Shown here: in pieces, positions 2,415 to 51,249 of the stretch
Position numbering within the stretch: position 1 is the stretch's first letter
How the letters are laid out: each line of letters begins with the position of its first letter
Source of the DNA: Actinomycetota bacterium
GTDB lineage: Bacteria > Actinomycetota > Thermoleophilia > UBA2241
NCBI GenBank assembly: GCA_026392275.1
Contig: JAPLCM010000093.1
Span: 1-60,450, forward strand
Direction of reading: 5' to 3'
Length of the DNA: 60,450 bases
Made by a program: the position numbers and the translations under genes
The notes under the pieces: model-generated
Told to the model about the DNA's origin: nothing
The model's database searches: none
Seen by the model: only the letters and a program-made list of their open reading frames with translations

Positions 2415-2452
2415 GCCGCGGTGCTGCTCGTCCACCCGCCCGGCGCCGCCGC

Positions 2453-4319: not shown

Positions 4320-4329
4320 CGGGCGTGCG

Positions 4330-6303
<1,974 letters not shown>

Positions 6304-10936: not shown

Positions 10937-11108
10937 GCGCGTGAACGTCGTCGGCGAGGAAGCGGCGATGCCCCCCCGGGCTGCGGTAGGCGGCGATCCG
11001 CCCGGCGTCGGTCCAGCGCCGCACCGTGTTGTCGCTGACGCCGAGCAGGCGCGCCACGTCGGCGACGTGCAGCCAGGTGATGTCTGTCATCTCTCCGACG
11101 CTGTCCAT
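10542..11108 (-). CDS. Excisionase/MerR-type HTH segment, probably the frameshifted N-terminus of the 6308..10936 gene
   Basis: From ATG 11108 (or 11090): ITWLHVADVARLLGVSDNTVRRWTDAGRIAAYRSPGGHRRFLADDV. This closely parallels the N-terminus of the intact paralogue at 30911. Only about the first 95 codons look protein-like. The rest, down to 10542, is an Arg/Pro-rich read-through overlapping the GAF gene in another frame. Confidence 0.6.
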   Translation of the reverse strand: MDSVGEMTDITWLHVADVARLLGVSDNTVRRWTDAGRIAAYRSPGGHRRFLADDVHALVVDEQVAGAAVHPGDFAELRRQTQDLRAVVQAGLDLTAPLCADRRTSLRRLRTSGRPAAARRLRRRRPARREPARRFVGAGRLDPGERRARHPPGDRPGRRRRPPGTARAPRPATPRLPGARVGADDGAR

Positions 11109-11320
11109 GAGCCCACTTCCTGCATCGGCATCCCCGAACGATGACTTTACTAAAACTCTCACAGACGTGCATGACTTAGGGAGTTTCGGCAGGATGCCCA
11201 CCGTCCAGACTGCCTCGGCGGCCGTGCCCGTGGCGCGGCGGCCGCCGGCGACATAGCATGCGCGTATCGATCGTCGCCGGCCGGGACTGCGGCCGCAGCT
11301 TGAGCAAGGGAGCGCACACC

Positions 11321-12118
11321 ATGGAGCGGAAGGGCAGGGTCGAGGGCAAAGTCGCTCTCATCACGGGGGTCGCCAAGACCAACAGCATCGGCTTCAACAC
11401 GGCCAGGGTTTTCGGCGAGGAGGGCGCGCTGCTCGCCGTGGTCGACATCTCGCCCAAGGTGCACGCCTGCGCCGACGAGCTGCGCAAGGAAGGCTTCACG
11501 GTCTCGTCGCACACCGCCGACCTCACGAAGATGGACGAGGTGCGTAGGGCCGTGGCCGAAGCAGTCACCTGCCACGGCCGCATCGACGTGCTCGTGAACA
11601 ACGCCGGCATGGTCATCGAGGGCATGGACGAGGACTTCACCGATTTCGCCCACATGAGCGAGAAGGACTGGGACTTCGGCATCGCCATCAATCTCAAGAC
11701 CCAGTTCAACGTGACGCGCACCGTGATCGGCGGCATGATCGAACGTGGCTACGGCCGTATCGTCAACGTGTCGTCGGTCACCGGCCCGGTGGTGGCCAAC
11801 CCGGAGGAGGCGGTGTACTGCGCTGCCAAGGCCGGGGTGCTGGGCATGACCCGCGGGGTGGCACTCGACGTGGCCAAGCACGGCATCACCGTCAACGCCG
11901 TGGGCCCGGGCTGGATCAACACGGGCTCGACCACGGAGGGCGAGCGCGCCGGCGCGGAGAACACGCCCTTCGGCCGCGCCGCCACGCCGGCCGAGGTGGG
12001 CAAGCTCATCTGCTTCCTCGGCTCCGACGACGCGAGCTACATCACCGGGCAGCTCGTGGTGATCGACGGCGGCAACACGATCCAGGAGTACAAGGGGCCG
12101 AGCGAGCTGTACTACTGA
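11321..12118 (+). CDS. SDR-family oxidoreductase
   Basis: MERKGRVEGKVALITGVAKTNSIGF nucleotide-binding N-terminus, NNAG, and catalytic YCAAKAG (YxxxK). The ORF track starts at 11258; ATG 11321 fits family length better. Confidence 0.8.
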   Translation: MERKGRVEGKVALITGVAKTNSIGFNTARVFGEEGALLAVVDISPKVHACADELRKEGFTVSSHTADLTKMDEVRRAVAEAVTCHGRIDVLVNNAGMVIEGMDEDFTDFAHMSEKDWDFGIAINLKTQFNVTRTVIGGMIERGYGRIVNVSSVTGPVVANPEEAVYCAAKAGVLGMTRGVALDVAKHGITVNAVGPGWINTGSTTEGERAGAENTPFGRAATPAEVGKLICFLGSDDASYITGQLVVIDGGNTIQEYKGPSELYY

Positions 12119-20556: not shown

Positions 20557-23500
20557 TCAGGGCCGGCAGACCGCCACGCGGTCCTTGCCGGCGCGCTTGG
20601 CCGCGTACAGCGCGGCGTCGGCGCGGGCCACCAGATCGTCCATGTTCCCGGCCATTGCGGGCCACGTGGCGATGCCGATGCTCACCGTGATGCGCGCCGG
20701 ATCGGTGCCCTCGCCGACGTCGAACTCGTGGGCGGCGATGGCGGCGCGCAGGCGCTCGGCGAGGGCCGTCGCGCCCTCGCCGTGCCCCAGCGCCGGGCCC
20801 TCGCCGGCGGGCGGGGCGCTCGCCTCGCCTCTCGACTCAGCTGCGTGCTGCGGGATCGCCGAGGGGGGCGTGTTGGGAAGGATGACCGCGAACTCCTCAC
20901 CGCCGTAGCGTGCGGGGAGGTCCAGGTCGCGGCGCAGCTGCTGGGTGAGCACGCCGCCGAGCAGGCGCAACACCTCGTCGCCGGCCGGGTGCCCGTAGGT
21001 GTCGTTGAGCGCCTTGAAGTCGTCGATGTCGAGCATGAGCAGAGACACCGGCGAGCCGTACCGGCGCCCCCGCGCGATTTCTTGGCCAAGGCGATCGTAG
21101 AAGGCGCGGTGGTTGGCCAAGCCGGTGAGGCCGTCGATCGTAGCCTGGGCCTCGATGCGGGCGTACAGCCGCGCATTGTTGAAGGCGATGGCCACCTGCT
21201 CACCGAAGGCTCTCAGGTAGGCGAGCTCGTCCGCCGTGTAGATGCGCTCGTTCTCCGTCTCGATCAGTACGAGCATGCCCAGCGCCTCTCCCTGGAAACG
21301 GAAGGGCACATTGACCAGTGTCCTCTCGCCCCAGGCGATCATCTCGCGGCGCACGAAGTCGTCGAGGTCCGGGTCGGAGAGCGTCTCTACGAACACTTGG
21401 CCCTTCTCGAGGGCTCTGCGGTCGTCGGGAGCGTCGGCCACGCTGAACACAGTGCCGATGGGGTCGTCGCGGGCGACGTCTTCGGCGCGATAGCACGCAC
21501 GCGTGACCACCACGTCGCGCTCGGCGTCGTACTCGTAGATGAAGGCCGCCTTGGCAAGCACGGATTCGGCGGCCAGTCGCGCTACATTCGACAGCAGTTC
21601 GTCGGCGTCGAGCGTCGAGGCTACCACGCGGCCGGCGTCCACGAGCGCACCCAGCCAGCGGTTGCGCTCTTCCTGGCGGCAGTGCAGACGGGCGTTGCCC
21701 AGAGCCACCGCCGCCTGCTCGCCGATGGCGCCCGCCAGGCGCATCTCGTCGGCGCTGAACTCGCGTTCGGCCGCGGTCTCGATGAGGATCATCACGCCGA
21801 TCAGCACCTCAGCCGATACGAGCGGCACGGTGAGCCACGTCTTCTCCCCGAAACGCTGCATGTCGTCACGGTCCTGAGTGCGGAGGTCGGGGTCCGAGAA
21901 GGACTCTTGCACCACCGTGCCGGCGCGCAGGGCGCGCATGCCGCCGCCGTGAGTGGTGATGTCGTAGGAGGCGCCCGCCAGGCTCTCCTCGAGGCCGGGC
22001 TCCGGTTCCTTCTCCCACAGGCAGCGGAACTCGGCGCGGTCGCCCTGCGGGCTGTACTCCCAGATGACGCACTGGGGACTCCCGAGGGCTTTGCCGGCCG
22101 CGCGGGCCACCTCTCGGAGCACCTCGTCGTAGTCGATGCTCGAGGCGATGGCCCTGTTGGCGCGCAGCAGCGCGGCGAGTTCCGTGGTCGTGTCGCGCAG
22201 GGTGCTGAAAGCCAGCCGGCGCTCCAGGGCGGCAGAGAGTGCCGTGGCGGCGGTGGTGAGCAGTGCGACTTCGGAGAAGTCCCACAGGCGTTCGTCGCTG
22301 CAGTTGTCGAAGCCGATGTAGCCGAAGAACTCGCCGTGGACCAAGAGCGGAAGCACGAGCAACGAGCGGATCCCCTGCGCCTCGAAGCTGGAGCGTGCGG
22401 GCTCGGGGAAGTCGGCCGCGAGTCCCATCACCGGGGCTCCACGCCGCAGGGGCTCGGACCACGGGCGCCCCAGGCGCTCGTAGAACTGCCCCCGCAGCGC
22501 CGGATTGTCGATCTGCGGGGTGATGCCGGGGCGTACCAGCTCGGCCAGATTGTCGGCGAACAGCCGGCCCTGCTCGTCGGTGCGGTTCTGGAAGACGTAG
22601 ACGCGGTCGGCGCGGGTGGCTTCCAGGAGCGGTGGCAAGATCAGTCGGTACAGTTCCTCGGGGGCCAGTGTGTCTGCGGCTTTCAGGAGACGTCGCTGGA
22701 TCTCGGCGACGGCTGACGTGAAGCCGGCGCGGCGTTCGCGCTCGGTGACGTCGCGCACGGCCTGCGTGACCAGGGTGCGGCCGGCGAGCTTCACGGCGGT
22801 CGCCGTGATCTCGACGGGGAACTCCTCACCCTCTCGCCGCCGGTGGCGGCGCAGTTGCACGAATGTGGCGGCCGCGCCGCTCGCGGCGCCGACCGTGGCG
22901 CGCGTGGCCTCGGGCTCGGCCGACAGATCGGTCATGCTGAGGCCGAGCAGTTCCTCGCGCGAGAAGCCGTACATGCGGGTCGCGGCGGCGTTGGCGTCGA
23001 GGATGTGGAGCGACTCACCGTCGACCACGAGCAGCGCGTCCGGGTCGAAGTCGAACATGCGTCCGTAGCGCTCCTCACTGCCGCGCAGAGCTTCTTCGGC
23101 GCGCCGGCGCTCGTCGATCTCGGCGAGAAGGGCGCGGTTGGCGTTTTCGAGCGCTGCCGTGCGTTCGGCCACGGTCGTCTCGAGCTCCATGTTCAGGCGG
23201 CGCACCTCCTCCTCGGCGCCCGCCCGTCTGACCAGCTCACCGGCTTCGCGGCCGACGGCGAGCAGCACCGCCATCAGCTTCTCGGAGACTTCGTACGGCG
23301 TGCGGGACGCCAGGCCAAGGGCGCCGAACACACCGTCGCCGGCGCCCAGCGGCACGGTGACCATGCTGGCGAGATCGGCGAGCATCGCGTCTCTGTGGGC
23401 GCGCGAACGCACCAGCGGCTCGCCGCGAGTGAGGACGTCGTAGGGGGGCACGTCGACGCGAAACGATGCGAGGCGCCGGCGCACGTCTTCGGGCAGGCCG

Positions 23501-23709
23501 CTCTCGCAGGCCAGATGTGCGGTCTGGCCGTCCTCGTCGATGAGGACGACGGCTCCAGCATCGAAGTCGAGCGCGGCCATCGTCACCGCGAGGATCTCCT
23601 CGAGGCCGTGCGCGAACCCGCGAGCCCGGCAGGCCGCCGTGATCACGCGGTCCAGCAGGGCGACCCGGCCATCATCTCGCAGGTGCGGTCGTGTGCGTCG
23701 CTCGTCCAT
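20557..23709 (-). CDS. GAF-PAS-GAF-GAF-GAF-GGDEF diguanylate cyclase
   Basis: Four GAF-type ..(V/L)PL...G...G motifs and one PAS (DALLVVDGESLHILDANAAATRMYGFSREELLG). C-terminal RYGGEEF with RxxD (RDLD). Start taken at ATG 23709 (MDERRT). Confidence 0.85.
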   Translation of the reverse strand: MDERRTRPHLRDDGRVALLDRVITAACRARGFAHGLEEILAVTMAALDFDAGAVVLIDEDGQTAHLACESGLPEDVRRRLASFRVDVPPYDVLTRGEPLVRSRAHRDAMLADLASMVTVPLGAGDGVFGALGLASRTPYEVSEKLMAVLLAVGREAGELVRRAGAEEEVRRLNMELETTVAERTAALENANRALLAEIDERRRAEEALRGSEERYGRMFDFDPDALLVVDGESLHILDANAAATRMYGFSREELLGLSMTDLSAEPEATRATVGAASGAAATFVQLRRHRRREGEEFPVEITATAVKLAGRTLVTQAVRDVTERERRAGFTSAVAEIQRRLLKAADTLAPEELYRLILPPLLEATRADRVYVFQNRTDEQGRLFADNLAELVRPGITPQIDNPALRGQFYERLGRPWSEPLRRGAPVMGLAADFPEPARSSFEAQGIRSLLVLPLLVHGEFFGYIGFDNCSDERLWDFSEVALLTTAATALSAALERRLAFSTLRDTTTELAALLRANRAIASSIDYDEVLREVARAAGKALGSPQCVIWEYSPQGDRAEFRCLWEKEPEPGLEESLAGASYDITTHGGGMRALRAGTVVQESFSDPDLRTQDRDDMQRFGEKTWLTVPLVSAEVLIGVMILIETAAEREFSADEMRLAGAIGEQAAVALGNARLHCRQEERNRWLGALVDAGRVVASTLDADELLSNVARLAAESVLAKAAFIYEYDAERDVVVTRACYRAEDVARDDPIGTVFSVADAPDDRRALEKGQVFVETLSDPDLDDFVRREMIAWGERTLVNVPFRFQGEALGMLVLIETENERIYTADELAYLRAFGEQVAIAFNNARLYARIEAQATIDGLTGLANHRAFYDRLGQEIARGRRYGSPVSLLMLDIDDFKALNDTYGHPAGDEVLRLLGGVLTQQLRRDLDLPARYGGEEFAVILPNTPPSAIPQHAAESRGEASAPPAGEGPALGHGEGATALAERLRAAIAAHEFDVGEGTDPARITVSIGIATWPAMAGNMDDLVARADAALYAAKRAGKDRVAVCRP

Positions 23710-23817
23710 GTGCCTCCACGGCGAAGCTTCCCCTCGCAGTATCGTCGGCAACCGTTGTCAGCTTGAACCACGCGCGGGTGAACTCACCCGTGCGGCGTGC
23801 GAAGATGGGGCGCGCGC

Positions 23818-30280: not shown

Positions 30281-30353
30281 ACGCGCCGCTGCCGTCGCGC
30301 GTCACCCTGCTTTGACGTCGACGGGTGCGACGGCGCCCGGGAAGGGAGCGCCG

Positions 30354-30767
30354 ATGAGACACACGGGTTCGGCGCTTGCGGCTGCGGTCGCTCTCGTGGC
30401 GCTGTCGCTCGTCGCCGTCGGGGCGTGTGGGGGGGACGGCGGCGGCCGGGGCGGCGGTGGGACGCCGCCGCCTGCCGCCGCCGCCGACATCACGGGCCGA
30501 CTCTCGCAGTTCTCGGCGGTCGCCGACGGCACCACTTCATTCCTCGTGGTCGCCGACGCGAACGTTTCCGGCCCCTACGACCGCGCGATGGTGCGCACCA
30601 CGGCCGACACGGTCGTGTGGACGCTGCAGGGTGAAGTCCGGCGCCGCCTGGCCGCGACCGACCTTCGCGACGGCCTCAGGGTCGCCGTGAGGTTCACTGG
30701 GCCGGTGGCCGAGTCTTACCCGGAACAGGCGGTCGCCGCCGGCATCGAGGTGCTGCCGGCTCTCTGA
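30354..30767 (+). CDS. Hypothetical lipoprotein
   Basis: Signal peptide plus lipobox (LSLVAVGAC) followed by a Gly-rich linker. GGGAGCG Shine-Dalgarno-like sequence upstream of ATG 30354. Confidence 0.6.
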   Translation: MRHTGSALAAAVALVALSLVAVGACGGDGGGRGGGGTPPPAAAADITGRLSQFSAVADGTTSFLVVADANVSGPYDRAMVRTTADTVVWTLQGEVRRRLAATDLRDGLRVAVRFTGPVAESYPEQAVAAGIEVLPAL

Positions 30768-30910
30768 GCCTGTGACGCGACTCTGAAGGCGTCACGATGC
30801 CGTCAAGCGGCATCGCGCCTGTATCCCAGACAGATTTGCCTAAGTTCTGGTACGCTGCTGCCGATACAGCTCCTGCGGGGCAGCAGCGGACGACCTTGGC
30901 ACGAGAACTT

Positions 30911-33900
30911 ATGACATCCGGGCTTCTCACCGTGGCCGAGGCCGCGGCCGAGCTGGGCGTGAGCCCAGCCACCGTCCGCCGCGCCTGCGACGCGGGGGTG
31001 CTGACCTGCCGGCGCAGCCCAGGCGGCCATCGGCGCTTCGCGAGGGCCGCCCTGGCGGGCATGACGCGAGACCGTCTGCTGCTTAGCGGTCGCGACAAGG
31101 AGAGCGGCGAGCGCGCGGTCCTCCAGGCGCTCGCCGATCTTGGTGAGGCCGCAAGCCGCTGGCGCGACACTCCCGAACTGCTGCGCGATGTGGCCGGCCT
31201 CATGCTGGCCGCGACCGGCGCGGTCACCTGCGACATCTACAGGCGCGAGGACGAAGGCGTGTTTCGTTGTCTTGTCAGCCTGGATCGCGACGGCCCGGAC
31301 GAGGAGGCCGTCGGTGCCGTGCTGCGCACGACTGTCTGGGCGGTCGTTCGCGAGGCGTTTGCCTCCGGCACCGTCGTGCACGTGGAAGACCGTGACGACT
31401 CGCGTCTTACAGACGAGGACCGGGAAGTGTACGACGAGTACGGTTTCGCCAGCGAGGCGTGCATCCCCCTGCTCGTACAGGACCGGGTCGTCGGTGTGAT
31501 CGAGCTGTACGGGGGCCGGCCGCACGCGTTCGCCGCGGCGCTCGACTACATGCGCGGCGCCGGTCACGTGGTCGCCGGAGCCCTGGAAAAGGCATTGCTG
31601 CTTGCCGCGCTGGAGGATCGCAACCGGGTCCTCAAGGAGCTCTTTGACCTTGCCCAGCTCCTTGCCACGACATACGACGTGGAAGAGCTCCTGCACACCG
31701 TCGCGACGCGTCTCCTTCGGACGGTCCGGGCCGCCTACTGCGAAATCTACCAGAGCGACGGCGAAGGGTATCGCTGTGTCGTCAGCGTCGGTGGTGACGG
31801 ATTCCCGGAGTCCTACGAAGGCCGCTTCCTCGACCTGGCGCACAACCCCACGCGTGCGTCGGCGCTCGCCGGGCAGCGCTCCCTCGTGATCACCGACGTG
31901 GAGGTGTCGGAGCTCACCGCGGGGGAGCGCGATGTGCTGCTTGCACAGGGCGTGCACAGCGAGCTCTGCATCCCCCTCGTGGTCAAGGGCGCCGTGGTCG
32001 GCCTCATCGATCTGTTCGGCGCCCGGCCGCGCGACTGGCAGGAGTGCATCGACTTCACCGCCGGCGTGGGGCAACTCGTCGCCGGCGCCATGGAGAACGC
32101 CGACCTGCTGGGCCACCTCGAGGGGAGCAACCGGGATCTGCGCACGCTCGTGGATGGCGGACTCGAGTTCGGCTCCACGCTCGACGCGGAGCGCGTACTC
32201 CTGTCCATCGCGCGAAGGATGCGCCAAGCGACGAGTGCGGCGGCCTGCGACATCTCCGCCTTGGATGGGGAGTCGCTCCACGCTCTTGTCGGCATCGACG
32301 GCAAGGATGAGGTCATCGAGGACTTCGCCGGACGCGAGTTCGTGGTGGGAGACTACCCCCTCACGGGCCAAGCGCTGAGGAACGGCCGGCCGGTCGTGGT
32401 CGACGACGTCGTCAGCGATGCCCGCGCGAGCTCACTGGAGCGGCGGAGCTGGGAGCGGTCCGGGCTTCGCTCAGGGATCATCGTCCCGCTCATCAACGGC
32501 GCCCAGATCGTGGGCGTGACGGCGCTCTACGACAGCGAGCCGCGCTCCTTTGGGCAGCTGGACCTGCTGCGCGGGCTGAGCCAGGTGGCGGGGCAGGCGA
32601 TCGTCAACGCGCGGCTGTACAGCGAGGTCGGCCGCAGCGCCCAGCGTGCGGCGCTGCTCAACGACGTGAGCGCCGAACTGACGGGGGCGCTCGACACGCG
32701 CCAGCTTCTTCAGACGGTGGCAGAGCGTGTGCGAGCCGTCGCCGACGTGAGTGAGTGCAGCGCCTTCCTGCTCGCCGGCGACGACCGGCTCGAATGCGTG
32801 GCGACGTCGTCGCTGGGCGAATCGGCGGAGTGGGCTCTCCCCGGCGTGTTCGTCGGGCTTGAGCGCTGGCCGGTGACGCGCCTCGTGATCGAGACCCGCC
32901 GGGCGGCGGCCGTCACGTCGCTGGACGACCCGCGCATCGACGCCGGTAGCCGGGCGTGGCTGGCGGCGCACGGCGTCAAGAGCTACCTCGTGGCGCCGCT
33001 GATCGCCAGGGGCATGGTGGCCGGCGCCCTGGAGCTGACTGAGACCCGGCAGGAGCGGGTGTTCTCCGGCGACGAGATCGGCCTCGTCGAGGCCGTGTGC
33101 CGCGTCGCCGGCCTCGCCATGGAGAACGTGCTGCTGATCGGCGACCTCGAGCGCCGCAACCGCGAGGCGGAGCTGCTCAACGAGATCGCCAGGCGCACCA
33201 CGGCCAGCCTCGATCTTGGCGAGATCGCCGAAGCCGCGGTCGCGGGCCTCGGACGTCTCGTCCCCATCGCGAGCTACGGCCTGACGCTTGTGGAGCGCGG
33301 CGAGTTCGCCCAGGCGTACGGGTCGCGGCCTTCCGAGCGTCCGCGCGCGGTGTCGATGGCCGGCGACGCGCTCGGCGACGTGCTCGAGAGGCTGCGCCGC
33401 GAGCGCGTGATCATCCTCGATGGCGCCGACGAAGGTTCCATGCCCGAAGGGCACCCCGCGGCCGCCGGCAGCCTCTCGAGTGCAGCCATCGGGCTATTCG
33501 ACCAGCACATCCTGAGCGGCGTGCTCATGTTGGAGGGCGCCTCCCCCGGGGCGTTCTCGGCGGTCGACGCCGGCGTCCTCGAGCGGGTGGGGGTGCATCT
33601 GTCCCTGGCCGCCAACAACGCGAGGCTCTACCAGGAGATCAAGACTCTGCACCTGAACAACCTGAAGGGGCTCTCCACAGCGCTCAACGCCAAGGACTAC
33701 TACACCTGGGGGCACGCGGCGCGCGTGGCCGCCTACACGGTGCTGCTCGGCGAGCAACTGGGCTGGGAGCCGGAGTGGGCCGAGCAGGTGCGCGAGGCCG
33801 CGTATCTCCACGACATCGGCAAGATCGGCGTCTCCGACAGAGTGCTCGTGAAGCAGGGGCCGCTCAACGCCGAAGAATGGGAGCTCATGCGGCAGCACCC

Positions 33901-35209
33901 GGCGGTGAGCGCCGAGATCATCAAGCCGCTCTTCTCCGCAGATCTCGTGGCCGCAGTGCGACACCATCACGAGCGGTACGACGGCAAGGGGTACCCCGAC
34001 GGACTCGCCGGCGACGACATCCCGGAACTGGCGCGCGCGATGTGCGTCATCGACTCCTACGACGCGATGTCGCTGCAGCGTCCGTATCGCGACGCGCGCA
34101 CCTACGAGGAGTGCCTTGTCGAACTGAAGGCGTGCCGCGGCACGCAGCTCGACCCCGGCTTGACCGACGCGTTCCTGCGCGTGCTGGAACGGCTGACCGG
34201 GCTTCGCGAGGTGGCGCGGCGCGCCGCCGCTGAGGCGGCGGCGCGCATCGATCCCGAGCGTCACGCGACGCTGCGCGACCCCCACGACGAGGCGCGTCCG
34301 GAGTACGCCAGGATCAAGAAGGTACTTCGGGAAACGCGCGACGCGTACCCCGAAGTGCGCTTCATGACCACGTCGGCGAACAGGGACGGGCGCACGGTGA
34401 TCGTGGTCGACGCCGAGGAAGCGGACGCACCCGAGCGCTCACCTCTTGGTGAAGAGGTGGTCGCCGACGACGCTATCGCCCAGGTGCTCTCCGGGCGCGA
34501 GATCGCCTCCAACGTGCTCTTCGTCGACAATTTCGGGGTGTGGGTCAATGGACTGGCGCCGCTGATCGGCGAGGACGGAGAGATCCTCGCGACCGTGGTG
34601 GCCGACGTGCCGGCCCTGAGCTCGAGCGGAGCGCGGAGTTTCGCGCGGATGACCACCGAGACCCCGGTTTCGACGCTGCAGGAGGCGGCCGTCCGCCTCA
34701 GCCGCGCCGAGATCGAGGCCATCACCGACGGTCTGACCGGACTGTACAACCACCGGTATCTTCACGAGCGCTTGACGGAGGAGTTGAGCCGGGCACGCCA
34801 CGAGAGTCACGGCGCGGCGCTCCTCTTCTGCGATCTCGACTTCTTCAAGGATTTCAACGATCGCCTGGGGCACGCCGCCGGCGACACTGCACTGCAGGCC
34901 ACGGCGCGCATCATCGAGAGCTGTACGCGGCGCGCCGACCTGGTCGCACGCTACGGCGGCGAGGAATTCGTCGTGGTGCTCCCCGGGGCGGCCGAAGCGG
35001 AAGCGGTGGAGATCGCCGGGCGCATCCGCACCGCCGTGGCCAAACACCATCACGAGAACGGGGGCTTGACGATCAGCATCGGCGTGGCCACGTATCCCGA
35101 GTCGGCCGCAAGCAAGGAGGGCCTGCTGGAGGCCGCGGACAGGGCGCTCTACGTGGCCAAACGGCTCGGCCGCGATCGCGTCGTGGCCGCCGGCGCCGCC
35201 GCCCGCTGA
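30911..35209 (+). CDS. HTH (excisionase/MerR-type) + 5 GAF + HD-GYP + sensor + GGDEF protein; the intact paralogue
   Basis: N-terminus LLTVAEAAAELGVSPATVRRACDAGVLTCRRSPGGHRRF. Five GAF-type motifs. HD-GYP motifs HDIGKIGVSD and HHERYDGKGYPDGL. An intermediate sensor-like domain (FVDNFGVWVNGLAPLIGEDGEILATVVADVPAL). GGDEF (RYGGEEF) with I-site RRAD. Confidence 0.85.
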   Translation: MTSGLLTVAEAAAELGVSPATVRRACDAGVLTCRRSPGGHRRFARAALAGMTRDRLLLSGRDKESGERAVLQALADLGEAASRWRDTPELLRDVAGLMLAATGAVTCDIYRREDEGVFRCLVSLDRDGPDEEAVGAVLRTTVWAVVREAFASGTVVHVEDRDDSRLTDEDREVYDEYGFASEACIPLLVQDRVVGVIELYGGRPHAFAAALDYMRGAGHVVAGALEKALLLAALEDRNRVLKELFDLAQLLATTYDVEELLHTVATRLLRTVRAAYCEIYQSDGEGYRCVVSVGGDGFPESYEGRFLDLAHNPTRASALAGQRSLVITDVEVSELTAGERDVLLAQGVHSELCIPLVVKGAVVGLIDLFGARPRDWQECIDFTAGVGQLVAGAMENADLLGHLEGSNRDLRTLVDGGLEFGSTLDAERVLLSIARRMRQATSAAACDISALDGESLHALVGIDGKDEVIEDFAGREFVVGDYPLTGQALRNGRPVVVDDVVSDARASSLERRSWERSGLRSGIIVPLINGAQIVGVTALYDSEPRSFGQLDLLRGLSQVAGQAIVNARLYSEVGRSAQRAALLNDVSAELTGALDTRQLLQTVAERVRAVADVSECSAFLLAGDDRLECVATSSLGESAEWALPGVFVGLERWPVTRLVIETRRAAAVTSLDDPRIDAGSRAWLAAHGVKSYLVAPLIARGMVAGALELTETRQERVFSGDEIGLVEAVCRVAGLAMENVLLIGDLERRNREAELLNEIARRTTASLDLGEIAEAAVAGLGRLVPIASYGLTLVERGEFAQAYGSRPSERPRAVSMAGDALGDVLERLRRERVIILDGADEGSMPEGHPAAAGSLSSAAIGLFDQHILSGVLMLEGASPGAFSAVDAGVLERVGVHLSLAANNARLYQEIKTLHLNNLKGLSTALNAKDYYTWGHAARVAAYTVLLGEQLGWEPEWAEQVREAAYLHDIGKIGVSDRVLVKQGPLNAEEWELMRQHPAVSAEIIKPLFSADLVAAVRHHHERYDGKGYPDGLAGDDIPELARAMCVIDSYDAMSLQRPYRDARTYEECLVELKACRGTQLDPGLTDAFLRVLERLTGLREVARRAAAEAAARIDPERHATLRDPHDEARPEYARIKKVLRETRDAYPEVRFMTTSANRDGRTVIVVDAEEADAPERSPLGEEVVADDAIAQVLSGREIASNVLFVDNFGVWVNGLAPLIGEDGEILATVVADVPALSSSGARSFARMTTETPVSTLQEAAVRLSRAEIEAITDGLTGLYNHRYLHERLTEELSRARHESHGAALLFCDLDFFKDFNDRLGHAAGDTALQATARIIESCTRRADLVARYGGEEFVVVLPGAAEAEAVEIAGRIRTAVAKHHHENGGLTISIGVATYPESAASKEGLLEAADRALYVAKRLGRDRVVAAGAAAR

Positions 35210-37334: not shown

Positions 37335-37910
37335 TCAGAGCGGCGCCGGCACGAGAAGGACCCAGAGGGCGCCGACGACGAGCCCGAACGCCAGCCCGCC
37401 GAGGACGTCGCCGAGATAGTGGACTCCGAGGTACACACGGCTGAAGCAGAGCGCGACGGTGAGCGCGACCAGGGCCGGCAGCGTGGCGGGGTACAAGGTG
37501 CCCACGGTGAGGGTGCCGACCACGGCCATGCTGGCATGCGAGGAAGGGAACGACTTGCTGAAGGGCAGCGGGATCTGCTGCGGCTGGCTCGGGTCGGCGA
37601 TGGGGGGACGCGGCCGGGCCACAAAGTGCTTGATGAGGAAACCCACCGCCTCCACAAGCGTCACCGGCACGGCTACGTACAGGGCCTTCGCCAAGGGTCG
37701 TGGCTCACCGAAGACCCACGGCAGGACTGAGGTGACGTACCAAAGCACGCCGTAGTTTGCCGTCAGCGAGAAGGCGCCGAGAGGCCATGCGAACCAGCGA
37801 GGGTGTGGCCAGCCGGTGGCCGCACGCCGCGAGAGCTCGCGGTCGAGGTGGTCAAGGCGGCCGCCGAGGTTCGGCGGCGCGGTGTCTGTGGAGCGGGGGG
37901 CAGAGGGCAT
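37335..37910 (-). CDS. PAP2-family phosphatase (undecaprenyl-diphosphatase-like)
   Basis: All three PAP2 motifs present: KHFVARPRP, PSSHAS and SRVYLGVHYLGDV. Confidence 0.8.
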   Translation of the reverse strand: MPSAPRSTDTAPPNLGGRLDHLDRELSRRAATGWPHPRWFAWPLGAFSLTANYGVLWYVTSVLPWVFGEPRPLAKALYVAVPVTLVEAVGFLIKHFVARPRPPIADPSQPQQIPLPFSKSFPSSHASMAVVGTLTVGTLYPATLPALVALTVALCFSRVYLGVHYLGDVLGGLAFGLVVGALWVLLVPAPL

Positions 37911-37974
37911 GAGAATAGCCTCTAGTATACTATCCGCCTGTCTCTGCCCACTCCGCCTCGAGGGAACGACCTTC

Positions 37975-38250
37975 ATGCGCACATCGGTCATCGTCACGGC
38001 ACTCGGACCCGACAGCCACGGCCTCCTGGCCGCCGTCGCCACCACGGTGGCCGAACAGAACGCGAACGTCGACGACGTGAGCCAGACCGTCGCCAACGGC
38101 ATGTTCACGATGATCATGTTCGTGTCGTTCGACGAGACGGAGACGACGATGGTCGCGCTCAAGGACGCGCTCGAGACGACCGGCGAGCGCGTCGGCCTGC
38201 AGATCAACGTGCAGCACGAGAACATCTTCAAGTTCATGCACCGCATCTAG
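37975..38250 (+). CDS. ACT-domain protein (UPF0237 family)
   Basis: MRTSVIVTALGPDSHGLLAAVATTVAEQNANVDDVSQTV; about 91 aa. Immediately upstream of a UPF0210 gene, which is the usual pairing. Confidence 0.8.
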   Translation: MRTSVIVTALGPDSHGLLAAVATTVAEQNANVDDVSQTVANGMFTMIMFVSFDETETTMVALKDALETTGERVGLQINVQHENIFKFMHRI

Positions 38251-42463: not shown

Positions 42464-43207
42464 CTACTCCGCGGCGAGCGAGCCGTCGAGCGAGGCGTCG
42501 AGCACCGCCCCCTCGTCGTCTTCCTTGGAGCGATACAGCTGGCGCGCATCGCGAAGCCTGTCGTACTCGTCGTTCAGCACCGCGCCCATCTCACGCCACA
42601 GGCAGACATCCTGCTTGAGGTGCTTCGCCTTGATCACCGCGGTGCACTCGGCGTCGAGCGGGCAGGCATAGCACACCTCGTTTTCCACGACGTTCACCGT
42701 CTTGCGCGAGCGCTCGCCCTCGTCGATGCGCCGATAGGCGTCGAGGAGCAGCTCCTGGACGTCTCCCTGGATGGTGACCTGGAAGCGCGGCATCTGCTCG
42801 GGCTCGTCGTAGATGAACACACCGTTCTGCCAGTGGGCCAGCTCGAACACCTGGTCCAGCGTCTGCCTGCTCATGACCTCGCGGATCCGGGCTTCGCTGG
42901 TGAAGCCCCTTTCGATCAGGCGCTGGCCGAGCGGTTTGAACTTCTTCTGGTCGTGTGTGAGCTCCGAATCCTCCATGAGGGCCTCGGCGAGTTGCTGCTC
43001 GCTGAGGCAGCCGGCTTTGAGAAGGCGCGTGCCCAGCTTCTCGTCGGAGATCGGCAGGGAGATCCCCTCCACGCTGCCGTCGACGAGGTAGATGAACCCG
43101 TACTCCTCGAAATCGCGTACCTCGAGCACGCCGGTGGCGGCGTTCTGCGCAAGGAACTGCAGGACGCTCGCCAGGTCAAACCTGCGGATCGATCCCTGGA
43201 GCAGCAT
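42464..43207 (-). CDS. DUF4388-domain protein
   Basis: MLLQGSIRRFDLASVLQFLAQNAATGVLEVRDFEEYGFIYLVDGSV matches the DUF4388 N-terminal signature. Cys-containing C-terminal half. Confidence 0.6.
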   Translation of the reverse strand: MLLQGSIRRFDLASVLQFLAQNAATGVLEVRDFEEYGFIYLVDGSVEGISLPISDEKLGTRLLKAGCLSEQQLAEALMEDSELTHDQKKFKPLGQRLIERGFTSEARIREVMSRQTLDQVFELAHWQNGVFIYDEPEQMPRFQVTIQGDVQELLLDAYRRIDEGERSRKTVNVVENEVCYACPLDAECTAVIKAKHLKQDVCLWREMGAVLNDEYDRLRDARQLYRSKEDDEGAVLDASLDGSLAAE

Positions 43208-43317
43208 GGCCCTGTCTCTGCCGGCTTTCGTCGTGCATTCGGCGTATCGGCAGATTGCAGGTAAAAACTTAGGGCGGCGGCAGCGTTGATCGCGCGGCGG
43301 AGGCCGGCCCGGCCAAA

Positions 43318-43347
43318 TTGACCCGACCTTCGCCGCACGGCTATACT
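43318..43347 (+). promoter_or_regulatory. Putative sigma-70-type promoter of rpmH
   Basis: TTGACC (43318-43323), an 18-nt spacer, then TATACT (43342-43347), about 36 nt upstream of the rpmH start. Confidence 0.5.
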
Positions 43348-43383
43348 GCACGTTCCGAGTATCGGCAATCGAGCGAGGAAGCT

Positions 43384-43518
43384 GTGAAGAGGACCTACCA
43401 ACCGAACACCCGTAAGCGCAGCAAGACCCACGGCTTTCGCAAGCGGATGAGCACCCGCGCGGGTCGGGCGGTCATCAAGAACCGGCGGCAGAAGGGGCGC
43501 AAGCGCCTCTCGGCTTAG
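43384..43518 (+). CDS. rpmH: 50S ribosomal protein L34
   Basis: [44 protein letters not shown] is near-invariant L34 sequence. GTG start with GAGGAAG upstream. Confidence 0.95.
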
Positions 43519-43529
43519 TCGCCCGGCCT

Positions 43530-43916
43530 ATGGCCACCAAGCGCCCCCGCCTTTCGCGTTCATCCGACTTCCGACGTATCTACAGGCAGGGGAGTTCGAC
43601 GGCTTCCCGGTTCCTCGTGCTCTACTCGTTCAAGCGCCCAGCAGAGACGGGCGCCGAGGGGCCGAGGCTGGGGCTGTCAGTCTCGAAGAAGCTGGGCGGA
43701 GCCGTCGTCCGCAACCGCGTCAAGCGTCTGCTGCGCGAGGCCTTTCGGGGCTGCGCGGAGAATCTGGCCGAGGAGTACGATCTCGTGGTGATCGCGCGCC
43801 CGCACCTGCTCGAGCTCGTCGCTCGCGAGAGCGCCGGGGAGAAAGGCGTCGTCGGCGCGGCCGTGCGCGAGCTTCTGGTCCGCGCCGGCGTCCTCAGCGA
43901 GGTCCAAGGCTCTTGA
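43530..43916 (+). CDS. rnpA: Ribonuclease P protein component
   Basis: Follows rpmH. Basic protein with the RNR-like motif ([16 protein letters not shown]). Confidence 0.9.
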
Positions 43917-44179
43917 ACAGGATCCTCATCGCCTTCATCAAGGTGTACCAGTACACGATGTCGCCGCTTCTCGGGCCGCGTTGCAGGTACTACCCGTCGT
44001 GCTCCAACTACGCCGTGGACGCGCTGCGCGAGCACGGCGCGGTGCGCGGTCTCGGTCTGGCCACGTGGCGCCTGCTGCGCTGCAACCCTTTCAGCAACGG
44101 TGGCTACGACCCGGTGCCGCCGCGCCACAAGTGCAGCGAGCCCGAGCACTGCGAGACGAACATGAACACCCATGTATAA
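43913..44179 (+). CDS. yidD: Membrane protein insertion efficiency factor YidD
   Basis: [34 protein letters not shown]...[16 protein letters not shown]. The TTG start overlapping the rnpA stop is tentative. Confidence 0.85.
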
Positions 44180-45146
44180 CTTCCCAATCCTCAAGCAGCT
44201 GGTCCTGCTGCTGCACTGGATCCTCGTCACGATCAACGGCGCTCTGGAGTCCATTGGGCTGAGTTCCAACTGGAGCTGGGGCTTGGCCATCATCGGGCTG
44301 ACCATCATGGTCCGTCTGGTGCTCTTCCCCCTCACGTGGAAGCAGTTCAGCTCGGCGCGGTCCATGCAGGTCATCCAGCCGCAGCTCAAGGAGCTGCAGA
44401 AGAAGTACAAGGGCGACCGCGGCAAGCTCCAGGCGGAGACGATGAAGCTCTACCAGGAGCATCGGGTCAACCCGTTCGCCTCCTGCCTGCCTCTCCTTCT
44501 TCAGCTGCCCGTCTTCATCTCGCTGTATGCGGCCATCAAGGGTCTCGGCCCCCTCAGCGCGCCCCAATACCAGGCCTCGGTCGAGGCTCTGAACAACGCC
44601 AGCTTCCTGTGGATCCCCCATCTTGGGCTGCCGGATCCGTACTACATCCTGCTTGTCCTCTATGTCGTCTCCCAGCTGATCTCGACGGAGCTGATGCTCT
44701 CCGCGCAGACCGACAAGTCGCAGAAGATGATCATGCGGGCCATGCCCATCATGTTCGTGTTCTTCCTGTTCCGCTTTCCGGCCGGTCTGTTCGTCTACTG
44801 GGTGACCACTAACATCTGGACCATCGGCCAGCAGCTGCTCATCCGCAAGGTGATGAAGCCCAAGGACCTGGAGACGATGACCGCGAAGCCCGTCAAGCGC
44901 AGCCGCTTCATGGAGGCGCTCACGGCGGCGCAGGGCGACCGTGTGCAGACCCGCGAGGATCTCATCGCCAAGCAGAGGGCCGAGAAGGCGAAACAACAGG
45001 GGGGCGCCAAGCAGGCCGCCGGCCAGCCGGCGGCCAAGAAGGGCGCCCGCAAGGCCCCGCCCGGCAAGGGCAAGAGCAAGCAGAGCCCGAAGCAGAGCCC
45101 GCCGGCGGGTCAGGGCAAGAGCCAGAGCGGCCCGGCGGGCGGCTGA
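44172..45146 (+). CDS. yidC: Membrane protein insertase YidC (short Gram-positive type)
   Basis: [46 protein letters not shown]-like [15 protein letters not shown], and a Lys-rich C-terminal tail. Confidence 0.9.
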
Positions 45147-45197
45147 GCACAGCCTTCTGCAGGGCCGTCGTTACTCCCTTGGGGAGCGGAGGCAGCG

Positions 45198-45926
45198 ATG
45201 ACCGAGCCTGACGACCTTCAGCCTGTCGACGACGGCGAAGACGACGACACCGAGTTCGCGACCATCGCCGGCGCGGCCACGATACCGGAGGCCAAGCGCA
45301 AGGCACTTGAGCAGCTGCGCAAGGTCGTCCCCTACGTCAACGAAGCCGATGTCGACTTCGTCGTCATGGAAGAGGGCAGCAAGGGCGGCCTATTCGGCCG
45401 CGGCAAGAGCGAAGCCCGGGTCGAGGCACGCGTCCTGCCCGCGGGAGAGCGCCCCGGCGGCGACCTTCAGCTCGACGCCGAGGTGCTGCGGGAATTCGTG
45501 CAGACCACGGTCGATCTCATGGGCATCGAGGCGTACGTCGGCGCCGGCGAAGCCGGTGAGGCGGTGAAGGCCGACATCAGCGGCGACGATCTCGGCATTC
45601 TCATAGGGCGGCACGGCGCCACCATCGACGCCCTGCAGTACATCGCCGCCATCGTGGTCAACGGCGACCGTCGCGAGCGGTGCCAGGTGATCGTCGACGC
45701 CGAGGGCTATCGCGAGCGCCGCGAGGTCGCGCTGTCGTCGCTGGCCGAGCGCACGGCGCAGAAGGTCGTTCGGGATGGCGCCGCTATCGCTCTTCAGCCC
45801 ATGACGGCGGCCGAGCGCAAGGTGATCCATCTGCACCTCAAGGACCATCCTCGTGTCGAGACCGTGTCGGAGGGCAACGAGCCTTTCCGGGCGGTGGTCG
45901 TCTCTCTCCAACGGCCCAGCGGCTGA
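45198..45926 (+). CDS. jag: Jag/KhpB RNA-binding protein (Jag-N, KH, R3H)
   Basis: Position after yidC. KH-like GRHGATIDALQYI. R3H region MTAAERKVIHLHLKDHPRVETVSEGNEPFRAVVV. Confidence 0.85.
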   Translation: MTEPDDLQPVDDGEDDDTEFATIAGAATIPEAKRKALEQLRKVVPYVNEADVDFVVMEEGSKGGLFGRGKSEARVEARVLPAGERPGGDLQLDAEVLREFVQTTVDLMGIEAYVGAGEAGEAVKADISGDDLGILIGRHGATIDALQYIAAIVVNGDRRERCQVIVDAEGYRERREVALSSLAERTAQKVVRDGAAIALQPMTAAERKVIHLHLKDHPRVETVSEGNEPFRAVVVSLQRPSG

Positions 45927-51090: not shown

Positions 51091-51249
51091 CGCCGGTACG
51101 CCGCTGCGCCTCCGGTGGGTTTCGCGCGAGGCCGGCGGCGTCTTCTCGCGGGTCGGTCGACCTCGGGGCCTGTGGTAAAGTTGAGGCGCGTGGCGGCTGC
51201 AACGCAGCCCCGCGACTGCCGATCACCCACCTCAGGAGAGCACCAGCGT

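Follow-up and report, generated by a model that had tools for sequence, protein, structure and literature searches.

A conserved actinobacterial protein family joining an N-terminal winged helix-turn-helix to predicted c-di-GMP-degrading and c-di-GMP-making domains

The gene and the domains of its product

The window, by which we mean the whole 60,450-nucleotide stretch of contig JAPLCM010000093.1 from a Thermoleophilia bacterium, carries an intact single open reading frame that ends at the stop codon 35207-35209 (ORF list and translation). The open frame spans 30797..35209, and it and the features of this gene given below all lie on the + strand. An earlier note made from the letters alone had placed the gene at 30911-35209; the intact frame and the stop stand, but the start is probably TTG 30896, five codons 5' of ATG 30911, because 10 orthologous upstream regions all carry a TTG, GTG or ATG in precisely this alignment column. 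The coding sequence would then be 30896..35209 (1,437 aa), while the alternative ATG 30911 gives 1,432 aa by translation, in line with the ~1430 aa first proposed; residues are numbered throughout from ATG 30911. A start at ATG 30797 was rejected, since the frame would cross the conserved non-coding promoter. GC3 of the coding sequence is 0.87, typical for coding DNA of the window, and no transmembrane segments were found in the encoded protein. The gene is real and intact, and its product is a large cytoplasmic protein.

The domain order is an HTH_17 winged helix, five GAF domains, an HD-GYP domain, a Cache/PAS-like domain and a GGDEF domain. The earlier note had read this combination, an HTH, five GAFs, an HD-GYP, a sensor and a GGDEF in one polypeptide, and it is borne out by Pfam and NCBIfam scans, by scans of protein segments and by AF2 models searched with Foldseek; Pfam matched HTH_17, GAF, HD_5, HD and GGDEF. 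By sequence and predicted fold the N-terminal segment is a winged HTH of the MerR/BldC/excisionase type, as suggested before. This HTH_17/MerR-like domain (residues 5-49, 30923..31057) scores 39.6 bits in Pfam against a cut-off of 27 and 30.1 bits against 28.8 for TIGR01764 'excise' in NCBIfam, with the NCBIfam BldC model far under threshold (36.8 vs 77). Its best sequence match in the PDB is 8jbs (2e-7), with BldC (6ama/6amk) at 2e-6 and CarH at 0.03, and the N-terminal AF2 model (pLDDT 90.7) shows the winged HTH and, after it, a long helix (residues 53-82). Fifteen of the 17 invariant columns in the N-terminal family alignment fall within residues 12-42. The BldC residues that contact DNA or are needed for binding, Arg30, His46, Arg47, Arg48, Thr27 and Gly44 (PMC5859096), align to R24, H40, R41, R42, T21 and G38, all of them invariant in the family.

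A whole-protein Pfam scan finds five GAF stretches (E=6.6e-50), whose positions were set by scanning the protein segment by segment. GAF 1 (residues 86-226, 31166..31588) scores 42.3 bits with Pfam GAF and its AF2 model matches GAF folds with E about 4e-9; GAF 2 (256-394, 31676..32092) and GAF 4 (595-738, 32693..33124) score 45.3 and 59.3 bits with the same model, and GAF 3 (424-564, 32180..32602) scores 53.6 bits with GAF_2. GAF 5 (767-900, 33209..33610) is the most divergent, at 25.7 bits with GAF_2 when scanned alone, under the 28.6 cut-off; the whole-protein scan includes it as stretch five. Pfam finds nothing in the region that separates HD-GYP from GGDEF, and structure prediction with AF2 gives a confident fold there (pLDDT 82.9). 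Foldseek places this fold, a predicted cytoplasmic, family-specific sensor at residues about 1124-1234 (34280..34612), with sCache and PAS domains: the sCache formate sensor 8py0 (E=2.9e-4), CitA PASp (target-normalised TM-score 0.71), and KinD and WalK too. Its D, G and W columns are kept across the family, and a helical stalk joins it to the GGDEF.

Two predicted c-di-GMP enzymes

The HD-GYP phosphodiesterase, of the binuclear subtype, occupies residues 922-1083 (33674..34159; Pfam HD_5 110 bits, HD 73 bits). It aligns to PmGH (4mcw, E=1.1e-38) at every position of the H, HD, H, HH, D, GYP series, so that no binuclear metal ligand is missing and the GYP motif is there too; the third-metal ligand Glu185 of PmGH is a Tyr here. 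The KDYYT[LW]GH motif is kept family-wide. The GGDEF diguanylate cyclase spans residues 1270-1423 (34718..35179; Pfam 159.5 bits, TIGR00254 172.8 bits in NCBIfam) and aligns to WspR and PleD with E 1e-29 to 1e-35, retaining the D-x-D-x-FK-x-ND, GHxxGD, RxxD, GGEEF and AKxxGR positions. The motifs reported earlier were found again: HHHERYDGKGYP of the HD-GYP at residues 1018-1029, the I-site RRAD at 1340-1343 (34928-34939) and the A-site GGEEF at 1349-1353 (34955-34969). RxxD and GGEEF recur in nearly all of 80 related loci. Catalytic residues beyond the quoted motifs, whose degeneracy had been named beforehand as what might speak against the reading, are intact in both alignments. With both sites preserved, the protein would both make and degrade c-di-GMP.

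Another cyclic dinucleotide, for example 3'3'-cGAMP turned over by a V-cGAP-type HD-GYP and a Hypr-type GGDEF, is highly improbable as the substrate. Among solved structures the cGAMP-specific V-cGAP3 (5z7c, E=9e-37) does rank second as a relative of the HD-GYP domain, but the c-di-GMP enzyme PmGH ranks first, and for the GGDEF it is WspR and PleD that come closest. The GGDEF here also retains the Asp of GHAAGD, a position at which Hypr GGDEFs that make cGAMP carry Ser or Thr. A somewhat unlikely alternative is that only a single domain of the pair is catalytic in vivo while the other acts as a nucleotide sensor, either an HD-GYP trigger sensor binding c-di-GMP or a GGDEF that senses via its I-site or GTP binding. 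Most GGDEF-EAL tandems work in this way. Most tandem cyclase/phosphodiesterase proteins have just one catalytically active domain (PMC6205966), and the trigger-enzyme concept (PMC5052742) and the conserved I-site RxxD fit such a division of labor. However, degenerate sensor domains usually lose catalytic or metal-binding residues, and all of those that we checked are intact in both domains and kept family-wide.

Family conservation, promoter and adjoining box

The protein is, by its sequence, a member of a conserved family. Some 75 full-length homologues share HTH_17, GAFn, HD_5 and GGDEF, with roughly 4 to at least 8 GAFs each. Homologues with named records are confined to uncultured Thermoleophilia and other Actinomycetota, and among 95 related genome loci, all 80 fetched belong to metagenome-assembled genomes of these groups. 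A second, frameshifted copy lies in the same window. Identity to distant paralogues is 57-86% for the HTH, 67-81% for HD-GYP, 53-78% for GGDEF, 39-65% for the Cache-like domain and 26-67% for the GAFs; the HTH and HD-GYP are the most conserved parts, and these per-domain values mark the HTH and the catalytic domains as the constrained parts of the protein.

Upstream lies a sigma-28 (FliA/WhiG)-type promoter, TAAG-N15-GCCGATAC at 30841..30867, alternatively read as CTAA-N16-GCCGATAC. It has two mismatches to the WhiG consensus given in PMC8325347 (-35 TAAA / -10 GCCGATAA) and lacks the exact -35 that a 2026 search with tighter criteria demands, T(A/C)AA with N16. A look for RNA runs covering the region found none. 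The promoter is kept in 10-12 orthologous upstream regions, metagenome contigs included, and its AAGTT and CCGATA are invariant among orthologues. Across the family, a sigma-28-type site sits at a fixed distance upstream of 24/59 genes, where the background rate is 0.005 per 220 nt; this is a count of mutually homologous promoters and so not of independent events. The window paralogue is preceded by TAAA-N16-GCCGATGC at 11122-11149, and the window holds no whiG/fliA or rsiG. Thermoleophilia have WhiG and a single-motif RsiG, and in Rubrobacter radiotolerans 5/12 TSS-verified WhiG promoters precede DGC/PDE genes (PMC8325347). These promoters suggest that the gene and the window paralogue probably belong to a sigma-28/WhiG regulon of the motility/pilus type.

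Directly upstream of the -35 is a conserved, family-specific box, AGATTTGCC (30832..30840), with no variation at columns 1-8 among 10 orthologous upstream regions. The family core reads (G/C/A)AG(A/T)TTTG, and other paralogue groups have an equivalent GGGAG-N-TTTGG box adjoining the -35, such that family promoters of every paralogue group carry one, that of the window paralogue included. The 18-mer occurs once in the window against 0 expected by chance, and the strict form was not found outside family promoters in 2.76 Mb scanned. The box is similar to known half-sites of BldC, for example GATTTCCCC and CATTTGCAC (PMC5859096). As a candidate operator, it is the best current lead for the DNA target of the protein's own HTH, and it could also be an extended -35 element or another regulator's site.

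We think it unlikely that this is a conventional sensory c-di-GMP enzyme and no transcription factor, with the HTH a non-specific nucleoid localiser, an architectural or protein-contact module, or a relic, and the box belonging to the sigma-28 promoter or another regulator. HTH_17 is also known from excisionases and other architectural proteins, the BldC model falls short of its cut-off, three homologues (P0042, P0046 and P0076) are listed without the HTH, a long GAF array stands between HTH and catalytic domains, and box specificity was controlled with one non-family sigma-28-like promoter, that of a DUF4388 gene. But the HTH is the best or second-best conserved domain across paralogues that are 38-45% identical overall, and its invariant residues are the DNA-contacting ones, a pattern that points to sequence-specific contacts rather than to a relic. 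The box, moreover, is kept across paralogue groups and absent at the DUF4388 promoter, which is itself conserved. A transcription-factor function of the protein is plausible.

A proposed DNA-tethered enzyme and its known relatives

We favor a bifunctional c-di-GMP enzyme that is probably tethered to DNA and placed inside the sigma-28/WhiG regulon. In this soluble cytoplasmic protein the I-site-bearing GGDEF would synthesise c-di-GMP and the binuclear HD-GYP would break it down, and ligands or protein contacts at the five divergent GAFs and the Cache/PAS-like domain probably tune the balance. The BldC/MerR-like winged HTH most likely anchors the enzyme on DNA, its best candidate target being the box at its own promoter; through such binding the protein would regulate its own gene, in analogy to the trigger phosphodiesterase PdeL. 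In basal Actinobacteria, c-di-GMP controls the motility/pilus-type sigma-28 regulon via the anti-sigma factor RsiG (PMC8325347), so that the enzyme, once expressed, would act back on the signal gating its own sigma factor. Local c-di-GMP turnover may, we infer, set promoter occupancy; tight allosteric coupling is uncertain because an array of five to ten GAFs stands between the HTH and the enzymes. For this joint reading, from enzyme to own-promoter box to sigma-28 feedback, we see the chances as evenly balanced. Geometry counts against this reading: the two HTHs of a parallel GAF/GGDEF dimer would be arranged symmetrically, whereas proteins of the BldC type bind direct repeats head-to-tail.

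The earlier note knew of no characterised transcription factor carrying both activities. Neither the HD-GYP census, which mentions no HTH or DNA-binding fusions, nor the other literature searched yielded a characterised protein with this architecture, but the concept itself is known: E. coli PdeL (YahA), a LuxR-HTH plus EAL 'trigger PDE' with one activity, is already characterised (PMC5052742), while the combination with HD-GYP and GGDEF is not known. PdeL likewise joins an N-terminal HTH to a c-di-GMP enzyme domain, active in PdeL and predicted here, and it binds its own promoter with c-di-GMP-dependent transcriptional activity; its review leaves open whether trigger enzymes exist among HD-GYP proteins or cyclases (PMC5052742). 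It has neither cyclase nor sensor array, whereas the protein here has a MerR/BldC-like HTH, HD-GYP as the phosphodiesterase, an added GGDEF and six sensor domains between.

Streptomyces BldC (6ama/6amk; PMC5859096) shares the homologous winged HTH (E=2e-6), with R30, H46, R47 and R48 conserved, and half-sites that run AT-rich then G/C, such as CATTTGCAC, much like the box. BldC is, however, a protein of 68 residues that stands alone and sits head-to-tail on direct repeats, while the HTH here heads a ~1,430-residue protein, precedes a long helix and misses the BldC cut-off. CarH/LitR-type MerR-like photoreceptor regulators (5c8d, 8jbs) are one-component proteins with the same HTH subtype N-terminal to a sensor, in their case a B12-binding domain without enzymatic output. 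The C-terminal order of HD-GYP, small sensor and GGDEF, with GAFs upstream of HD-GYP, is found in known HD-GYP/GGDEF proteins, which are membrane-anchored or without a DNA-binding domain. The WhiG-dependent DGC/PDE genes of R. radiotolerans are likewise c-di-GMP turnover genes with TAAA/GCCGATAA-type promoters, from a lineage of basal Actinobacteria, and the available part of PMC8325347 describes no HTH fusion or promoter-adjacent box for them. Among actinobacterial proteins that pair a c-di-GMP-type domain with an HTH, Streptomyces lunaelactis SLUN_31535 has an HD-GYP without GYP and then a LuxR HTH (PMC6205966), and PucR/MabR has a non-catalytic GGDEF-like fold (PMC11617747); both have their HTH, which belongs to another class, at the C-terminus. 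Set beside these systems, the protein represents an uncharacterised variation on known c-di-GMP signalling proteins.

Domain architecture of the target protein and its family

An ORF scan of the window returned a single long open frame at 30797-35209 on the + strand, whose third-position GC (0.87) is typical for the real genes of this window (70% GC), and translation from the ATG at 30911, from which residues are numbered here, gives 1,432 residues without interruption. The earlier note had proposed that 30911-35209 encodes an HTH followed by five GAF domains, an HD-GYP domain, a sensor domain and a GGDEF domain; this order proved correct in the intact frame, Pfam, NCBIfam and a scan of overlapping segments, and we hold the architecture with high confidence. 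None of the hydrophobic segments of the protein resembles a membrane helix.

The N-terminal segment had been read as an excisionase/MerR-type HTH, and a MerR-like winged HTH is what we find there: Pfam HTH_17 matches residues 5-49 with 39.6 bits (cut-off 27), the excisionase-type DNA-binding family TIGR01764 is barely over its cut-off (30.1 vs 28.8 bits), and an AlphaFold (AF2) model of residues 1-240 (pLDDT 90.7) contains a winged HTH, a 30-residue helix and GAF1, with the strand-helix-helix-wing spanning residues 5-48 (pLDDT ~79-93). The helix (53-82) connects the winged HTH to GAF1 in this model; classical MerR regulators have a coiled-coil dimerisation helix and a C-terminal effector domain at this point, and the helix seen here may or may not dimerise. 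The closest solved relatives of the HTH are 8jbs, a CarH/LitR-like cobalamin-binding regulator (2e-7), DNA-bound BldC (6ama/6amk, 2e-6) and CarH. The target is an HTH protein related to BldC and not a member of the BldC family, NF033787, against which it scores 36.8 bits vs a curated cut-off of 77, being ~1,430 aa long vs a small stand-alone protein. BldC contacts DNA through Arg30, His46, Arg47, Arg48 and Thr27, and the substitutions R30A, H46E and G44E abolish binding (PMC5859096). The positions of BldC R30, H46, R47, R48, T27 and G44 correspond to R24, H40, R41, R42, T21 and G38 in the target, all of them invariant in an alignment of 21 family sequences with overall identity down to 25%; 15 of the 17 invariant columns of this alignment fall within residues 12-42.

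The overlapping-segment scan placed the GAF domains at residues 86-226, 256-394, 424-564, 595-738 and 767-900, the fifth being weak alone. Their pairwise identity is only 16-38%, and they are therefore old, divergent repeats. In a fold search the GAF1 model matched GAF structures at E ~4e-9; a specific GAF ligand was also sought in this way, and only generic GAF folds were returned (phytochrome, PtsP and sigma-54 regulator GAFs). Between HD-GYP and GGDEF, residues 1084-1269 match no Pfam profile and are modelled as a confident alpha/beta fold (pLDDT 82.9). Its modest similarity to sCache/PAS-like sensor domains is suggested by Foldseek matches to 8py0 (a formate chemoreceptor, E=2.9e-4), CitA, KinD and WalK, with TM-scores of 0.46-0.71. 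Unlike classical Cache domains, this Cache-like domain is cytoplasmic, and a helical stalk joins it to the GGDEF domain.

The motifs of both enzymes, noted from the start as apparently intact, are so when set against solved structures. The HD-GYP domain is recognized by HD_5 at residues 922-1083 (110.1 bits, cut-off 27.2) and by the HD profile (73.2 bits, cut-off 22), and aligns to the c-di-GMP phosphodiesterase PmGH (4mcw) at E=1.1e-38, with the H...HD...H...HH...D metal ligands, the HHExxDGxGYP motif and the RPY(K/R) segment all kept. The acidic third-metal residue of PmGH, Glu185, is replaced by Tyr in the target (KDYYTWGH) and throughout the family (KDYYT[LW]GH), so that the domain lacks the acidic equivalent that defines trinuclear enzymes and belongs, by the criterion of the HD-GYP census, to the binuclear subtype. 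As PA4781 tentatively suggests, the preferred product of this subtype may be pGpG rather than GMP. The GGDEF domain (residues 1270-1423; Pfam 159.5 bits, TIGR00254 172.8 bits) can be aligned to WspR and PleD, both active cyclases, at E values of 1e-29 to 1e-35 (PleD, 1w25, E=3.5e-29). Its active site is GGEEF (1349-1353), and an RxxD I-site, RRAD (1340-1343), lies five residues before it and aligns to WspR RSSD. The D-x-D, FK-x-ND, GHxxGD and AKxxGR positions, which bind substrate and metal in PleD and WspR, are kept in alignments to 5euh and WspR. The HD-GYP ligands, and likewise RxxD and GGEEF, are retained in nearly all related loci. We predict, with moderate confidence, that the target protein can both synthesize and hydrolyze c-di-GMP.

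A search of 5.8 billion proteins found ~75 full-length proteins with the same domain order, 1,250-2,400 residues long, and in representative members of this family the number of GAF stretches that can be detected ranges from about 3-4 to at least 8 while head and tail stay constant, a clear case of sensory input expanding by modules. Scanning genomes with the Cache-like domain brought up 95 related loci, of which 80 were fetched; all of these belong to MAGs of uncultured Thermoleophilia or other Actinomycetota, and many of the genomes hold two or three paralogues. Sequencing runs containing the target sequence come from freshwater-sediment and other sediment metagenomes. Identity to distant paralogues is 57-86% in the HTH, 67-81% in HD-GYP, 53-78% in GGDEF, 39-65% in the Cache-like domain and 26-67% in the GAFs, a ranking from which we conclude that the two enzymes and the DNA-binding head are maintained by selection, whereas the sensors diverge. 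Many of the related MAG loci have broken reading frames, probably from assembly errors, and some homologues may therefore lack the HTH only as an artefact. A protein of the cultured relative Paraconexibacter antarcticus (P0083) was considered as a family member and set aside; it has the reverse order, GGDEF then HD-GYP, and no HTH. Around orthologues the gene order is conserved (ABC transporter, DUF308, GNAT, small lipoprotein, target gene, ychF, M28 peptidase, ACT/DUF711), reflecting vertical inheritance in a housekeeping region in which the target has no operon partner.

The predicted promoter and the box beside it

Alignment of orthologous upstream regions identified a conserved non-coding element at 30826-30872 and, in ten of ten regions, a single column shared by TTG, GTG or ATG, which is TTG 30896 in the target and likely its start codon. 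We rejected the reading of the element as a coding part of a longer ORF from ATG 30797, because this column is further downstream and the conserved blocks look like promoter elements. Two invariant blocks, AAGTT and GCCGATA, form TAAG-N15-GCCGATAC (30841-30867), 28 nt upstream of TTG 30896. The search for WhiG promoters in Rubrobacter in PMC8325347 used a -35 of TAAA and a -10 of GCCGATAA, with at most two mismatches and at most 200 bp from the start codon, and the target site, with two mismatches to this flagellar/WhiG consensus, qualifies. A stricter rule (exact T(A/C)AA or CTCA as -35, N16; PMC12871210) excludes the target, whose -35 is CTAA when read with N16, and takes in many paralogue promoters, with TAAAG or TCAAG at N16.

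There are four sigma-28-like sites in the window vs 1.15 in shuffles. Besides the target site, which is conserved in orthologues, one lies at 11122-11149 upstream of the window's paralogue (TAAA-N16-GCCGATGC), inside the 11109-11320 intergenic region that had been singled out from the sequence; one lies upstream of the DUF4388/PATAN gene 42464-43207 on the - strand (TAAG-N16-GCCGATAC, 37 nt before the ATG); and the fourth, a doubtful one, overlaps a ribosome-binding site. In the genome loci fetched, such a site precedes 24 of 59 family genes vs a background of 0.005 per 220 nt, counts that overstate independence because family promoters share ancestry. These sites stand 121-148 nt upstream of the HTH motif, with TAAAGTT, TCAAGCTT or TTAACC as -35. 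A search near the target gene for a sigma-70 promoter or an intrinsic terminator found neither, none of the window genes scanned proved to encode a sigma factor, and a search for RNA sequencing runs containing the target region found none. We predict a sigma-28-type promoter for the target gene with moderate confidence; transcription from it would begin about 7 nt downstream of 30867.

The exact core of the element occurs once in the window, with 0 occurrences expected by chance, and in high-GC metagenome contigs the full element is found only directly upstream of target-gene orthologues. A wider regulon sharing the exact element was sought by scanning metagenomes for AGATTTGCCNAAGTTNTG and rejected: of 119 matches, only six, all high-GC and with the full element, lie upstream of target orthologues (five visibly enter the HTH ORF, and one locus stops too early), and the others fall by chance in unrelated DNA. 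Directly upstream of the target lies a small conserved + strand ORF, 30312-30767, with a signal peptide, a lipobox-like VGAC and a sub-threshold DUF3221 match. It is present at the related loci L003, L007, L135 and L181 and absent from L004, and the promoter element therefore belongs to the target gene rather than to this ORF. An RNA hairpin between the -10 and the start codon (CTGCTGCC...GGCAGCAG) was considered and found unsupported, with a weak RNAalifold result, unfavourable covariation (+0.84) and several broken pairs.

A motif directly upstream of the -35 (30832-30840 at the target), which we call the box, is kept in every paralogue group. Most groups have it as GGGAG-N-TTTGG, the window's paralogue as GAGAGTTTTAG and the target gene as (C/G/A)AGATTTGCC, and in 2.76 Mb scanned the strict box followed by T(A/C)AAG occurs only at family genes. 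The box could be an extended -35 element or the site of another protein; it adjoins the -35 in every group, and it is absent from the conserved promoter of the DUF4388 gene, the one non-family sigma-28-like promoter that served as control. The box also resembles BldC half-sites (such as GATTTCCCC and CATTTGCAC; PMC5859096) in having an AT-rich tract followed by G/C. No co-variation of the HTH recognition helix with the box was detected among paralogue groups after re-alignment, because the box core AG(A/T)TTTG is identical in all of them. We infer sequence-specific DNA binding and autoregulation, for which our best argument is that both the HTH and the box beside it at the promoters of its own family are conserved, and with lower confidence we propose the box itself as the target of the HTH, a candidate operator.

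The DUF4388 (PATAN-type) gene (- strand, region 42464-43271, Pfam 83 bits) keeps its site in six orthologous loci, with CTAA or CTCA as -35, and is likely a second sigma-28/WhiG target. A conserved ATTTGGCC upstream of it was considered as a second copy of the box and rejected, since by eye it is the opposite-strand TTGACC-N17-TATACT promoter of the divergent rpmH. This near-consensus sigma-70 promoter lies in the intergenic region 43208-43385, within a cluster of origin-proximal type (43208-45926) of rpmH (~43386, + strand, by eye), yidC (44172-45146, 60KD_IMP) and jag/KhpB (45198-45926).

The window's paralogue and other genes

A second family copy occupies 6308-11160 on the - strand (5 GAF, HD_5 and GGDEF, ~1,590 aa) and is most like the homologous protein P0071. 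Its HTH (MTDITWLHVADVARLLGVSDNTVRRWTDAGRIAAYRSPGGHRRF) lies in a different frame from the remainder, with a frameshift at ~10812-10855 that by eye appears to be due to a deletion of ~15 codons, of a length not a multiple of three, relative to the homologue P0068. An independent metagenome contig (run X1, depth 31.6, platform unrecorded) spans 10500-11071 without gaps, so the frameshift is real in the sampled population and the paralogue is a pseudogene or a split gene. Its box lies at about 11150-11160, beside its own 11122-11149 promoter site. Divergent from it is a short-chain dehydrogenase gene (11180-12118), whose translation-start region, GGGAG(G/T)TTCGG(C/G)AGGATG at 11179-11200, is conserved beside this paralogue group across many MAGs (e.g. 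locus L036, ~5532, + strand); paralogue and dehydrogenase thus form a conserved divergent pair.

A third large c-di-GMP protein (20557-23757, - strand, 1,066 aa) has the order GAF-PAS-GAF...GGDEF, with neither HTH nor HD-GYP. Its GGDEF profile matched in two stretches, so this domain may have an insertion or be degenerate, and no sigma-28-like site with at most two mismatches was found upstream of the gene. Elsewhere in the window, a selenocysteine machinery cluster at 1407-6303 (+ strand) comprises a selD-like AIRS protein (1407-2414), selA (2946-4319) and selB (4306-6303), implying that the source organism uses selenoproteins. An unusual fusion of glutamine amidotransferase, asparagine synthase and a C-terminal F420-0:gamma-glutamyl ligase-like domain (45 bits) is encoded by a 976-aa ORF at 51091-54021 (+ strand). 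As mechanically called, a PAP2 ORF (- strand) and an ACT-domain ORF (+ strand) overlap at 37335-38250; their Pfam domains lie in separate parts (~37344-37683 and 37987-38214), so the true starts probably give shorter ORFs than listed.

Proposed mechanism and known systems

We propose that the target is a DNA-tethered bifunctional c-di-GMP enzyme behind a sigma-28-type promoter, an overall explanation to which we give about an even chance. Dimerization of the protein would go through the GAF and GGDEF regions, input sensed by the GAFs and the Cache-like domain would shift the balance between synthesis and hydrolysis, and the I-site would limit synthesis. The HTH would keep the enzyme at the box beside its own -35, where it might help or block the sigma-28 holoenzyme. 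PMC8325347 gives WhiG the same specificity as flagellar sigma factors, ascribes WhiG and a c-di-GMP-armed anti-sigma factor, RsiG, to Thermoleophilia, and reports DGC/PDE genes behind 5 of the 12 WhiG promoters verified in R. radiotolerans. If the sigma factor acting here is WhiG, held by RsiG only with c-di-GMP bound (PMC8325347), expression of the enzyme would depend on the messenger it controls, closing a feedback loop around one of the few known sigma/anti-sigma pairs under nucleotide-messenger control. The promoter prediction would also extend to uncultured Thermoleophilia a link between sigma-28/WhiG promoters and c-di-GMP turnover genes that so far comes from Rubrobacter. A bolder version, which we consider unlikely, is that this is the first DNA-bound bifunctional HD-GYP/GGDEF trigger enzyme, expressed from a sigma-28/WhiG promoter and binding the box at its own and its paralogue's promoter, such that local c-di-GMP turnover, gated by six sensors, decides whether the sigma factor fires. 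If true, the RsiG-(c-di-GMP)-WhiG switch of basal Actinobacteria would have in this protein a feedback node complete in itself.

One question in the c-di-GMP field is whether enzymes other than EAL proteins, such as HD-GYP proteins and cyclases, act as promoter-controlling trigger effectors (PMC5052742). This family lends itself to a test of that question, since its DNA-binding head is conserved, its enzymes of both types are intact and a candidate DNA target has been defined, and the predictions are testable with recombinant protein and short DNA probes despite the organisms being uncultured. The closest characterized analogue of the proposed mechanism is PdeL, a phosphodiesterase of HTH-EAL type in which c-di-GMP switches promoter activation (PMC5052742). 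Like PdeL-type trigger enzymes, the target would join a DNA-binding domain and a competent c-di-GMP enzyme in one protein, a likeness drawn from sequence. The HD-GYP census describes GAF-HD-GYP and MASE9-HD-GYP-GAF-GGDEF architectures and never mentions an HTH; a Streptomyces survey reports one HD-GYP-LuxR protein, called unique, that lacks GYP (PMC6205966); and PucR-type regulators combine a non-catalytic GGDEF-like fold with an HTH (PMC11617747). Neither these nor PdeL unites a MerR-like HTH with an intact HD-GYP and an intact GGDEF. The earlier note knew of no characterized transcription factor carrying both activities, which stands for the combination among the systems compared, while fusion of an HTH to a single c-di-GMP enzyme is already known from PdeL. 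The target thus belongs among multidomain c-di-GMP signalling proteins and trigger enzymes, and what is new in it is a MerR-like HTH in company with both intact enzymes.
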